From Escherichia coli (GTDB lineage Bacteria > Pseudomonadota > Gammaproteobacteria > Enterobacterales > Enterobacteriaceae), in the NCBI RefSeq assembly GCF_003334405.1, contig NZ_QOWM01000003.1: a stretch of DNA of 64,000 nt, one strand, 5' to 3'. Below the pieces are notes generated by a model that saw nothing but the letters and a program-made list of their open reading frames with translations, was not told the DNA's origin and searched no databases. The first letter of the stretch is position 1. Every line of letters begins with the position of its first letter. This document shows, piece by piece, positions 37,410 to 39,244 of the stretch. The position numbers and the translations under genes were made by a program.

Positions 37410-37742
37410 TTAGACGTAAATATCAATGGTGCCAGCGGTATTTGTATCGTCTTTTTTCTCTTCTTTTTTATCAGGCTGAACTGTCGCGTCTTCATTCTTT
37501 TTCTCTGCCTGCTGCCTTAACAACTGCTCCAGTTGAGCCCAGAGGCTTTCAATTTGCTTCTGTACCAATGCAGCCATTTCTTTTTTCTGCTGTGTCGTCA
37601 TCCCCTCTTCCGATGAGATTTTCCCAAGCTTTTCAGTCAGCACCTGAATTTGTCTTGTGATTTTGGCTATTTCTGATGTTCCTTCCGGGGCGGAGTTGTT
37701 TGAAATAACGGTTGAGGTATTTCCCTGAATTGTGACAGACAT
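37410..37742 (-). CDS. flxA: FlxA-like protein (sigma-28-regulated in K-12)
   Basis: 110-aa ORF MSVTIQGNTSTVISNNSAPEGTSEIAKITRQIQVLTEKLGK... recognised as Qin FlxA. Confidence 0.7.
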   Translation of the reverse strand: MSVTIQGNTSTVISNNSAPEGTSEIAKITRQIQVLTEKLGKISSEEGMTTQQKKEMAALVQKQIESLWAQLEQLLRQQAEKKNEDATVQPDKKEEKKDDTNTAGTIDIYV

Positions 37743-38274
37743 AGATTTCTCCTTTTAAAAAAGCACTATCGGCATGCACAAAAAAATCTTTAATCGTATT
37801 TCTTGTGTCATTAATTGTTTGATGTTCAGATTGTTTTCCTCGCGGGCTGGCGCGCCTCAGAAAGTAAAGCTTGTTGACAGGGGTAAACGTTCGGCAATAA
37901 TTTTCTGCCGCATGCGGGTGTTGCATAAAACGTGTTACGTTCCTTTATCGACAGGTCAGGTCACCGCTCACCCGCCGACGAGAAAGCAACACTGACATGC
38001 TAAAGCAAAAAATAGATGAATAAGTTGAGTTGTGCATATGTAGCCTGACCGTCACAAAGTATATGGTGTCTGTACCAGTAAGATGATGGCCGGACTCTTT
38101 AAAAACGAGCTGACCTGCACAATACAGGATGGACTTAGCAATGGCTGCTCCTGGCACAAAGCGGACAGTGATCACCGTTCTTACGACTACTTTCTGACTT
38201 CCTTCGTGACTTGCCCTAAGCATGTTGTAGTGCGATACTTGTAATGACATTTGTAATTACAAGAGGTGTAAGAC

Positions 38275-38514
38275 ATGGGTAGCATTAACCTGCGTATTGA
38301 CGATGAACTTAAAGCGCGTTCTTACGCCGCGCTTGAAAAAATGGGTGTAACTCCTTCTGAAGCGCTTCGTCTCATGCTCGAGTATATCGCTGACAATGAA
38401 CGCTTGCCGTTCAAACAGACACTCCTGAGTGATGAAGATGCTGAACTTGTGGAGATAGTGAAAGAACGGCTTCGTAATCCTAAGCCAGTACGTGTGACGC
38501 TGGATGAACTCTGA
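38275..38514 (+). CDS. relB: Type II antitoxin RelB
   Basis: 79-aa ORF MGSINLRIDDELKARSYA...; stop overlaps the relE start by 1 nt. Confidence 0.9.
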   Translation: MGSINLRIDDELKARSYAALEKMGVTPSEALRLMLEYIADNERLPFKQTLLSDEDAELVEIVKERLRNPKPVRVTLDEL

Positions 38515-38801
38515 TGGCGTATTTTCTGGATTTTGACGAGCGGGCACTAAAGGAATGGCGAAAGCTGGGCTCGACGGTACGTGAACAGTTGAAAAAGAAG
38601 CTGGTTGAAGTACTTGAGTCACCCCGGATTGAAGCAAACAAGCTCCGTGGTATGCCTGATTGTTACAAGATTAAGCTCCGGTCTTCAGGCTATCGCCTTG
38701 TATACCAGGTTATAGACGAGAAAGTTGTCGTTTTCGTGATTTCTGTTGGGAAAAGAGAACGCTCGGAAGTATATAGCGAGGCGGTCAAACGCATTCTCTG
38801 A
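38514..38801 (+). CDS. relE: Type II toxin RelE (ribosome-dependent mRNA interferase)
   Basis: 95-aa ORF MAYFLDFDERALKEWRKLGSTVREQLKKKLVEVLESPRIEANKLRGMPDCYKIKLRSSGYRLVYQV... Confidence 0.9.
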   Translation: MAYFLDFDERALKEWRKLGSTVREQLKKKLVEVLESPRIEANKLRGMPDCYKIKLRSSGYRLVYQVIDEKVVVFVISVGKRERSEVYSEAVKRIL

Positions 38802-38872
38802 ACCAAAGCATGACATCTCTGTTTCGCACCGAAGGTGACACTTCTGCTTTGCGTTGACAGGAGAAGCAGGCT

Positions 38873-39028
38873 ATGAAGCAGCAAAAGGCGATGTTAATCG
38901 CCCTGATCGTCATCTGTTTAACCGTCATAGTGACGGCACTGGTAACGAGGAAAGACCTCTGCGAGGTACGAATCCGAACCGGCCAGACGGAGGTCGCTGT
39001 CTTCACAGCTTACGAACCTGAGGAGTAA
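38873..39028 (+). CDS. hokD: Hok-family type I toxin (HokD/RelF)
   Basis: 51-aa ORF MKQQKAMLIALIVICLTVIVTALVTRKDLCEVRIRTGQTEVAVFTAYEPEE with GGAGAAG upstream; below the track length cutoff. Confidence 0.8.
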   Translation: MKQQKAMLIALIVICLTVIVTALVTRKDLCEVRIRTGQTEVAVFTAYEPEE

Positions 39029-39244
39029 GAGACCCGGCGGGGGAGAAATCCCTCGCCACCTCTGATGTGGCAGGCATCCTCAACGCACCCGCACTTAACC
39101 CGCTTCGGCGGGTTTTTGTTTTTATTTTCAACGCGTTTGAAGTTCTGGACGGTGCCGGAATAGAATCAAAAATACTTAAGTAGCGCGCAGGGATAAGAGG
39201 GATGGTCCCTTAAAGGGGAGAGCTAATTATCCGGAAGGATTCTG

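Follow-up and report, generated by a model that had tools for sequence, protein, structure and literature searches.

Insertion of an IS1202-family transposon carrying relBE probably made the hok gene of the Qin prophage the third cistron of the relBE operon

Introduction

Where are the regulatory elements of a hok gene that lies immediately behind relBE? The question is raised by a 64,000-nt stretch of Escherichia coli DNA (NCBI RefSeq assembly GCF_003334405.1, contig NZ_QOWM01000003.1; the whole stretch is referred to below as the window) in which relB and relE, the genes of a type II toxin-antitoxin (TA) pair, are followed by hokD (also named relF), coding for a small membrane toxin of the Hok family. 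Most Hok-family genes have mok and sok elements, an overlapping reading frame and an antisense RNA, and a reading made from the sequence only had expected both of them next to hokD, as parts of a type I module stacked behind relBE. The comparisons described here point to a different arrangement: an IS1202-family transposon with relBE on board very probably inserted into the hok/sok locus of the Qin prophage, so that hokD is now the third cistron of the relBE operon. The TA genes themselves are not new, being those of the relBEF operon of E. coli K-12; what the window appears to preserve is the event behind this odd three-gene operon, i.e. a transposon insertion and the 15-bp duplication that came with it.

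hokD lacks mok and sok

The sequence-only reading had placed the mok frame and the sok promoter at about 38,800-38,880, directly upstream of hokD. This was not borne out. The Rfam sok model (RF01794), which spans the hok leader up to the hok ATG, gave no match at E ≤ 1 within positions 36900-39700. The same model scored 118 bits at hokC, 110 at hokB and 84 at hokE of K-12, used as positive controls, and 104-120 bits directly upstream of hokD at loci L007-L010, which belong to three other lambdoid prophages and one phage-like plasmid and whose HokD proteins are identical (L008, L009) or nearly identical (L007, L010) to that of the window. Homology to these intact loci starts abruptly at 38859, 13-14 nt before the hokD ATG, and from there covers the coding sequence, the 3′ fold-back (fbi) element and the terminator; compared with hokC, the hokD DNA shows 82% identity. 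The break lies at the same place when seen from the other side: in E. coli genomes lacking relE at this site, BLAST matches to a junction probe start at query positions 118-123, which correspond to 38857-38862.

The reading frames upstream of hokD gave a similar picture. The hokD frame is closed by an in-frame TGA at 38855-38857, six codons upstream of the ATG. The other overlapping frame stays open for 55 codons (38854-39021), its only start being a TTG at 38854 that has no ribosome-binding site. The curated K-12 record contains mokC/sokC, mokB/sokB, a mokA pseudogene and sokE; no mokD or sokD is entered for hokD. A sigma-70 scan found no minus-strand promoter at 38,800-38,880, a negative that carries no weight since the scan also finds no sigma-70 site in a genuine hok/sok leader. 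Of the features that define a type I hok/sok/mok system, hokD retains the Hok open reading frame (ORF), which is about 50 aa long and has a transmembrane helix at its N-terminus; a Sok antisense RNA in cis, an overlapping mok frame and a tac/fbi fold-back within one transcript are missing. On these comparisons, hokD is a decapitated hok gene without a regulator of its own. A study by Pedersen and Gerdes from 1999 is said to have described hokD as lacking sok and mok.

Two weak Rfam matches in the 3′ untranslated region of hokD were rejected: isrK (39037-39118, + strand, including the terminator), at 25 bits against a gathering threshold of 50, was probably driven by the terminator hairpin, and rsmX, at a sub-threshold 20 bits, was dominated by it. 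The Tyr47 codon of hokD, UAC, is followed by a G (39011-39014); in this UACG context TadA edits A to I, changing Tyr to Cys, in several hok mRNAs including that of hokD (bioRxiv 10.1101/2025.08.07.668861).

A complete hok leader lies 3.27 kb upstream

When the whole window was scanned with Rfam at gathering thresholds, the sok model gave a single match, at 35415-35586 on the + strand (104.1 bits). Nearly every base of the segment 35413-35585 can be aligned with the leader of an intact hokD-type locus, and the segment contains a tac element, the start of mok and the Sok-complementary region, i.e. a complete hokD-type leader (Table 1). The position of sok within it was transferred by alignment from K-12, where sokC lies at -49 to -107 relative to the hokC ATG. 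In intact loci mok continues in frame into hok; here it enters other DNA and then stops.

The leader ends in ...GGAGAAGCAGGCTAT (35571-35585) and the next bases are TGTTAACACCAAGCTGTAATGTCC. On the hokD side, ...GACACTTCTGCTTTGCGTTGACA is followed by GGAGAAGCAGGCTAT-G (38860-38874). A repeat search found this 15-mer to be the sole 100% direct repeat of at least 14 nt in the region. The two halves of a hok locus can thus be recognized, each bordered by one copy of the 15-mer: the promoter, tac, the mok start and the sok gene lie to the left (35413-35585), and the hok coding sequence, fbi and the terminator to the right (38860-39124). For the intact locus L008, the predicted minimum free energy fold recovered the closure between tac and fbi, with the 5′ segment GCGGGUGCUUGAGG paired with fbi. 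In the window, the fbi element had no stable partner in the predicted folds, and tac-fbi closure is impossible because tac (35413-35427) lies outside the relBE-hokD transcript.

A terminator-like hairpin followed by a T run was seen on the + strand at 35631-35652, just upstream of the ATG of the transposase gene described below; it could shield the transposase from read-through from the orphan hok promoter.

The two hok halves are separated by a putative IS1202-family transposon

The 3,274 bp lying between the two copies of the 15-mer have the features of an IS1202-family element: a DDE transposase, imperfect terminal inverted repeats with 5′-TGT/ACA-3′ tips and a target site duplication (TSD) in the 15-17-bp class. 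The inverted repeats at the two ends, IRL on the left and IRR on the right, match at 22 of 30 positions, for which the binomial tail at fixed positions is 3.8e-8. RefSeq labels the transposase 'IS1202-like element ISEsa1 family transposase', and its score for the NCBIfam model NF033594 (Table 1) is above the cutoff of 250 bits.

When copies of the element were compared, two parts were constant: the left, ISEsa1-type arm, up to about 37171-37178, and a 708-bp relBE cassette, from 38147-38152 onwards. The cassette, which starts with TGGCACAAAGCGG, was found behind at least six different left contexts. The middle of the element varies, being flxA-ydfV here, other DNA in loci L095 and L036, and metal-resistance genes in plasmid pKOCBH-A of Klebsiella michiganensis. 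ydfV is probably a chimeric ORF made by the junction rather than a conserved gene, because it crosses the cassette border at 38152: its N-terminal third lies inside the relBE cassette and the remainder in the flxA block.

The flxA block (37151-38167), considered as a possible mobile element in its own right, has inverted ends of its own, TGTCCGCTAAGAGC... and ...GCAAAGCGGACA, which also show TGT...ACA tips and match at 20 of 30 positions. It is present alone, in an unrelated context, in E. coli JE86-ST02 (L013, 3001-4017), where no target duplication is visible at the separate copy. The cargo of other versions of the transposon is swapped within these same boundaries. Between flxA and ydfV, a strong promoter-like site (TTGACA-16 nt-AATAAT, 11/12) lies at 37874-37901 on the + strand, antisense to ydfV and pointing toward relBE.

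Table 1. Positions of the features of the locus and of other annotated elements in the window
Feature	Position	Strand	Remarks
IS1202-family (ISEsa1) transposon, TGT...ACA ends	35586-38859	+	3,274 bp; transposase arm, flxA-ydfV block, relBE cassette
Left TSD copy, GGAGAAGCAGGCTAT	35571-35585	.	15 bp, perfect
Right TSD copy, GGAGAAGCAGGCTAT	38860-38874	.	Supplies the hokD Shine-Dalgarno (GGAG) and the AT of the ATG
Left terminal inverted repeat (IRL), TGTTAACACCAAGCTGTAATGTCCCCTTTG	35586-35615	+	22/30 ungapped, against the reverse complement of the right end
Right terminal inverted repeat (IRR), ending ...CTTCTGCTTTGCGTTGACA	38830-38859	+	Pairs with IRL, 22/30
ISEsa1-type transposase, 437 aa	35660-36973	+	NF033594 (ISNCY transposase), 456 bits
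Constant left arm, ISEsa1 as catalogued (~1.6 kb)	35586-37178	+	Alone beside other cargo in plasmids of Klebsiella, Enterobacter and Phytobacter
Constant right arm, 708-bp relBE cassette	38152-38859	+	Promoter/operator, relB, relE, 57-nt tail, IRR
Orphaned hok mRNA leader of the Qin hok/sok locus	35413-35585	+	RF01794, 104.1 bits at 35415-35586; ends in the left TSD copy
tac element, GCGGGTGC	35413-35420	+	5′ end of the orphan leader
Truncated mok frame, MLDTCRLASYVPKGTEKQA...	35527-35604	+	ORF list; ATG at 35527; compare MokC, MLNTCRVPLTDRKVKEKRA-MKQHK
sok antisense RNA gene, inferred position	35477-35535	-	Transferred from K-12 sokC/hokC through alignment; not mapped
relB, antitoxin/repressor	38275-38514	+	79 aa; NF008412, 133 bits; PDB 4FXE_A match
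relE, ribosome-dependent mRNA endonuclease	38514-38801	+	95 aa; TIGR02385, 54.7 bits; PDB 4V7K, 95/95
hokD (relF), Hok-family membrane toxin, third cistron of the relBE operon (probable)	38873-39028	+	51-aa ORF; same as K-12 HokD; NF007279, 48.5 bits
relO-type operator repeats, CTTGTAATGACA / TGTAATTACAAG	38238-38263	.	Repeat search; 12-nt direct repeats at 38234-38257
3′ fold-back (fbi) element, retained, CCTCAACGCACCCGC	39078-39092	+	5′ partner tac now at 35413-35427
Intrinsic terminator of hok mRNA, now probably of relB-relE-hokD	39097-39124	+	Hairpin 39097-39114 and T run
flxA	37410-37742	-	ORF, 110 aa; K-12 annotation
ydfV	37945-38250	-	ORF, 101 aa; spans the left border (38152) of the relBE cassette
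rem	39245-39496	+	ORF
Other gathering-level Rfam matches	42432-42824, 45334-45719, 49227-49425, 53591-53711		Two cspA-type leaders, IS009, MicC

Empty sites and insertions at other targets

Many E. coli genomes have an empty site, in which both flanks are joined over 312 bp and the 15-mer occurs once. The uninterrupted junction between leader and hokD was present in 4,279 of 5,426 genomes; the relE-hokD junction was found in 1,166, and the full unit together with both hok halves in 760.

Plasmids of Salmonella enterica, several Enterobacter species and E. coli also carry the whole 3.27-3.30-kb unit, with 99.8% identity. One copy, on an IncI plasmid (L015), lies in a pndA-type hok locus and has TGGAGGGGCTATGAT on both sides; a sok-model match there (128 bits) ends precisely where the unit is inserted. 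Another, on an IncF plasmid (L016), lies in a locus of the hok-R1 type, with GGAGAAGAAGGCCA on both sides. The flanks of these plasmid insertions show no homology to Qin past the conserved start of hok. Plasmid pKOCBH-A contains a 12,843-bp version with a perfect 16-bp duplication, ATCACGGGGCACGATA, at a non-hok site; between the arms formed by IRL-transposase and relBE-IRR it carries ncrYCBA, a methyltransferase gene, chrBA and hupE (Ni/Cr resistance). Matched TSDs were found at four different targets (15, 15, 14(-16) and 16 bp).

The sequences of species-representative genomes, metagenomes and viral contigs were scanned for an exact 23-mer of IRR, which returned 89 loci. In most of them, the sequence after the terminal ...GTTGACA was the GGAG of a hok gene; the hok genes adjacent to IRR were of the hokD type in 64 loci, and three hok-R1-like variants and a pndA type were also present. 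A matched GGAGAAGCAGGCTAT(G) duplication flanks 37 two-ended elements. At a further locus (L022), IRR adjoins a hok leader that is oriented the other way. The duplicated bases run from -13 to +2 of the hok start codon in all three hok targets with matched TSDs, and two further hok variants follow IRR directly in the same right-hand register. Although selection against an active hok could favour insertions at any place in the locus, an identical register in diverged hok targets argues that the site is recognized by the transposition machinery.

No basal form consisting of the transposase and relBE was found in the survey. Two candidates were discarded: a 2,261-bp element (L067) turned out to have an internal deletion in the transposase, and a set of 2.3-kb plasmid matches (H186-188) reflected a head-to-tail IRR-15 bp-IRL junction. 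A junction of this kind is seen at 1490-1551 of L108, an IncFII plasmid of Enterobacter hormaechei, where relBE-IRR is followed by the 15 bp GGAGAAGAAGGCCTG, a hok-type target, and then by IRL-transposase; it reflects either two copies that recombined or a form that is tandem or circle-like.

The account of a transposon lying in a hok locus is well supported by these comparisons, and the alignments of both flanks show a hok locus split by the insertion. The proposed order of events is as follows. The transposon, with its ISEsa1 left arm, variable middle and relBE right arm, inserted into the Qin hok/sok locus and duplicated a 15-bp stretch that begins at the Shine-Dalgarno sequence of hok and takes in the AT of its start codon. 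hokD was left without an antisense regulator of its own because the transposon separated the hok gene from the sok/mok control region. Any Sok made from the orphan leader would be unable to pair with the relBE-hokD mRNA, because only the 15-bp duplication is common to both and it lies outside the Sok target; we infer that this Sok cannot regulate hokD.

hokD as part of the relBE operon

relBE functions as it does in K-12, whose proteins are identical: mRNA is cut by RelE in the A site of the ribosome, and RelB both counteracts this toxin and acts as the repressor of the operon. The relB-relE-hokD locus of the window is a real, non-chance feature. The ORF list and the family models agreed with the identities and coordinates that the sequence-only reading had assigned to flxA, ydfV, relB, relE and hokD. 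NCBIfam models called RelB/DinJ, RelE/StbE and Hok; the scores of the first two (Table 1) exceed their cutoffs (NF008412, 96 bits; TIGR02385, 27.9 bits), and the 48.5 bits of hokD fall under the curated cutoff of 73 for NF007279. RelB aligned with chain A of PDB 4FXE over its full 79 aa (157 bits), and RelE was the same, residue for residue, as the RelE chain of PDB 4V7K (95/95). K52, K54, R61, R81 and Y87, which from RelE structures we take to be the catalytic residues, were all found in the translation. The hok frame is unbroken and its product is K-12 HokD (WP_000813254.1). Diverged RelE residues or a disrupted hok frame, the two findings that had been named in advance as speaking against these assignments, were thus absent.

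The stop codon of relB (TGA, 38512-38514) and the start codon of relE (ATG, 38514-38516) have one base in common (ATGA, 38512-38516), as had been noted. The short gap between relE and hokD also stood, though it measures 71 nt and not the 70 given earlier. With a RelE/StbE toxin, a translationally coupled ribbon-helix-helix antitoxin upstream of it and relO-type repeats at the promoter, the locus has the hallmarks of relBE. That the arrangement is known from Qin of K-12 proved correct: K-12 MG1655 and many other E. coli match the segment 37300-39600 with 100% identity along its entire length, 1,118 of 5,426 complete genomes contain at least 80% of it, and the TA genes are already known because of this identity. 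Gene content and order, the 1-nt overlap, the 71-nt spacer, the operator repeats and the terminator are all as in K-12 relBEF.

In K-12, relB, relE and relF (hokD) form one transcript, three Northern probes having detected the same full-length mRNA, and deletion of the relBE promoter abolishes induction (PMC3598666). Co-transcription of relBE and hokD has also been tabulated, hokD being a known confounder of relBE phenotypes (PMC5120126). relO operator function, repression by RelB/RelE and the Lon-lability of RelB are known from K-12 (PMC2812701). The window fits such a transcript. A scan of the + strand from relB to rem returned a single terminator-like site, at 39097-39124, and none between relE and hokD. 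hokD would be transcribed only from the RelB/RelE-autoregulated promoter/operator at about 38234-38263, with transcription ending at the old hok terminator, and its transcription would rise whenever repression by RelB is lost.

As for translation, the GGAG of hokD is intact, 9 nt from the ATG. The ribosome-binding site showed a moderate predicted pairing probability of 0.63-0.74 in all sequence contexts folded, with partners that vary with the context. A fold-back of GCGUUGA/UCAACGC onto fbi appeared in a 321-nt context only, the partners changed in every context, and it is not claimed here.

Relation to ISEsa1 and to known TA carriers

The papers found on ISEsa1 are nearly all genome surveys, plus a study of the IS1202 family. 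ISEsa1 has been listed as 1,609 bp long, with inverted repeats matching at 15 of 22 positions and no TSD in the multiple copies examined, and the small subgroup to which it was assigned is one that lacks TSDs (Harmer et al. 2023, PMC10132070). That study describes TGT/ACA tips for the IS1202 family and targeting of dif by the ISAjo2 group (PMC10132070). In another analysis the family was divided by TSD length into subgroups of 5-6, 15-17 and 27-28 bp, with TGT tips in the first two; Xer-site targeting was limited to the 5-6-bp subgroup, and only five members had a passenger gene, coding in each case for a hypothetical protein (Siguier et al., bioRxiv 10.1101/2022.12.17.520857).

The unit described here would fit the 15-17-bp subgroup, provided that its right end is the IRR beyond relE; a right end at this place would explain the missing TSDs of the 1.6-kb 'ISEsa1'. 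It resembles the family in its DDE transposase, TGT...ACA termini, imperfect 24-30-bp inverted repeats and TSD class, and some family members also show oriented, site-specific insertion. It differs from the catalogued ISEsa1 in that the unit with matched TSDs reaches the IRR beyond relE (3.3-12.8 kb), and from the family at large in that it carries, as a fixed passenger at its right end, a functional TA operon. Its preferred target, the interval between Shine-Dalgarno sequence and ATG of hok, is likewise different from dif/pdif, the only sites for which these two studies report targeting, by another subgroup.

TA modules are not foreign to transposons. Tn3-family transposons can have type II TA modules beside their transposition genes, the TA being integral and presumably serving maintenance. 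In contrast to these carriers, the unit described here has a transposase of another family, its TA genes lie at the extreme end next to the inverted repeat, and a second, type I toxin gene appears to have been rewired. Compared with canonical hok/sok loci (R1 parB, hokC/gef, hokB and the lambdoid hokD type), the Hok ORF, the Shine-Dalgarno sequence, fbi and the terminator are kept, whereas the promoter, tac, the mok start and sok are 3.27 kb away and on a different transcript, and control would have passed to the relBE promoter.

That hokD was truncated by the integration of relBE is already known: PMC6379469, with reference to Ramisetty & Santhosh 2016, states that the integration shortened an ancestral hokD ORF of 70 codons to 51. 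In the literature searched, of which Ramisetty & Santhosh 2016 was not part, no description was found that links an ISEsa1/IS1202 element to relBE or hok.

These observations suggest a broader proposal, namely that the classic relBE of E. coli, instead of being a free-standing pair of prophage genes, is the fixed right arm of a previously unrecognised IS1202-type family (ISEsa1 arm, variable cargo, relBE, IRR) that inserts preferentially into prophage and plasmid hok/sok loci, in a register exact to the nucleotide (-13 to +2 of the start codon), each insertion disarming a type I system, placing its toxin gene under the control of relBE and installing a type II module. We consider the chances of this proposal about even. 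Several points weigh against the transposon reading of the window. It demands that the functional right end was missed when ISEsa1 was catalogued (1,609 bp, no TSD). Many of the loci surveyed are near-identical Qin copies and not independent events, and the mobility of the transposon is deduced from comparative sequence alone. Further, relBE-IRR lies beside non-hok DNA in L018, L020, L037, L062 and pKOCBH-A, L062 having a 6-bp repeat only; since several copies sit at non-hok sites, targeting of hok would be a preference and not a rule. The copy in the window may be inactive, because its transposase carries a 27-bp in-frame deletion near the N-terminus (around 35709-35721; 437 aa compared with 446 aa in the plasmid copies). 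The deleted and undeleted forms, which give element lengths of 3,274 and 3,301 bp, respectively, were both common in the survey. Finally, the predicted folds are silent on the translation of hokD, because the pairing changes with the sequence context.

Alternative explanations

Among the alternatives, the one that survives best concerns the output of hokD. It could be a silent relic, passively transcribed and never effectively translated, the locus then being a plain type II relBE. The loss of the mok-coupled translation of canonical hok genes and the predicted pairing of the ribosome-binding site in all contexts would agree with this, as would the finding that the chromosomal hok loci tested gave no post-segregational killing (bioRxiv 10.1101/2025.08.07.668861). 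However, the ORF is intact and codes for the same protein as the copies in intact loci, a good GGAG has been retained, and among the fragments left by toxin-induced cleavage of the operon mRNA, the one with hokD is the most abundant (PMC3598666); HokD is, in addition, toxic upon expression (bioRxiv 10.1101/2025.08.07.668861). A silent hokD is possible, if on the doubtful side, and would be compatible with the structural explanation, since it bears on the output of hokD only.

An anti-phage role is unlikely. Under this explanation relBE-hokD would be an abortive-infection system, in which shut-off of the host depletes RelB, RelE is freed, hokD is boosted and the cell dies. The prophage location fits abortive infection, and the operon architecture ties transcription of hokD to the loss of RelB repression; phage defence is one of three characterised roles of TA systems, and a role for Hok has been reported (bioRxiv 10.1101/2025.08.07.668861). 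Nevertheless, the PADLOC defence models gave no match among RelB, RelE, HokD, FlxA, YdfV and Rem, and the presence of the same cassette on plasmids and in a metal-resistance transposon fits addiction of a mobile element better. relBE is most likely the addiction module of the transposon or of the host replicon. The role as addiction or abortive-infection cargo that the sequence-only reading had envisaged for the genes is plausible only as addiction cargo of the transposon.

The 15-bp repeat and the adjacency of relBE and hok could in principle derive from illegitimate or homologous recombination, or from the spread of a relBE-hok block, rather than from transposition of a unit running from IRL to IRR. 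hok genes are similar enough to recombine, some flanks are recombinant (L034 and L102 are unmatched, L108 has the head-to-tail junction), and ISEsa1 has been reported without TSDs (PMC10132070). Set against this are the different matched 14-16-bp duplications at four targets, one of them non-hok, the precise TGT...ACA inverted repeats at the element ends, plasmid flanks without Qin homology beyond the conserved hok start, and empty sites with exactly one copy of the repeat, which together make this origin very improbable. Least tenable of all is a complete hok/mok/sok module squeezed into the 71-nt spacer and the 5′ end of hokD, for which the usual company of Hok-family genes and the open 55-codon frame would speak, and which the sequence already contradicts through the missing sok match (positive controls, 84-128 bits), the loss of homology 14 nt before the ATG, the in-frame TGA, the unsupported TTG, the genuine leader upstream and the curated K-12 record.

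Implications of a probable transposon in the hok locus

In annotation, hokD of Qin should not be treated as a hok/sok system; because hokD has no Sok or mok, deletion or derepression of relBE alters hokD transcription. Were the broader proposal true, ISEsa1 would serve as left arm to larger transposons, all of them ending in relBE and able to carry nickel/chromate resistance, and its apparent lack of a target duplication would be resolved. The repeated hits on the hok ribosome-binding site would then give the IS1202 family a new instance of targeting by sequence, and the locus would be an example of one addiction module displacing another.

The prophage in the window and in K-12

The assignment of the left half of the hybrid prophage to Qin held: segments 21486-30937 and 36789-48292 match the Qin side of K-12, in reverse coordinate order and with 99.9% identity, and the left flank, ynfF...rspAB-intQ′, is likewise 99.9% identical to K-12, the window lying at the chromosomal site of Qin. 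From 48681 to 64000 the window matches, in forward order and with 99.6% identity, the right end of Rac followed by uspF, ompN, micC, ydbK, ldhA and ydbH. The prophage is thus a Qin/Rac hybrid; this implies an inversion between the two prophages across the terminus region, with its crossover in the stf/tfa tail-fibre genes (junction 48292-48696).

Between 30937 and 36789, other DNA takes the place of dicA, dicC, dicF, dicB and ydfA-D of K-12, and no Rfam match to DicF was found in the window. In addition to the orphan hok leader and the transposon's left part, this segment contains an intact gene for a 677-aa exonuclease (31417-33450), a methyltransferase fragment and small ORFs. The window therefore differs from K-12 in three respects: it keeps the orphan leader as well as 1.2 kb at the left of the transposon, where IRL and most of the transposase lie, it lacks the dicA/dicC/dicF/dicB region, and its right side is joined to Rac. 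K-12, on this comparison, has kept only the right 2,071 bp of the transposon (36789-38859) and lost the hok leader; the structure is invisible there because these left parts are gone. What is annotated in K-12 as YdfW (b1567; 36824-36973 in the window) is the C-terminal end of the ISEsa1-type transposase: its 49 codons are the final ones of that gene, read in the same frame and with a common stop codon. The other Rfam matches at gathering level in the window are the cspA-type thermoregulator leaders of cspB and cspI of Qin, IS009 and MicC (Table 1).

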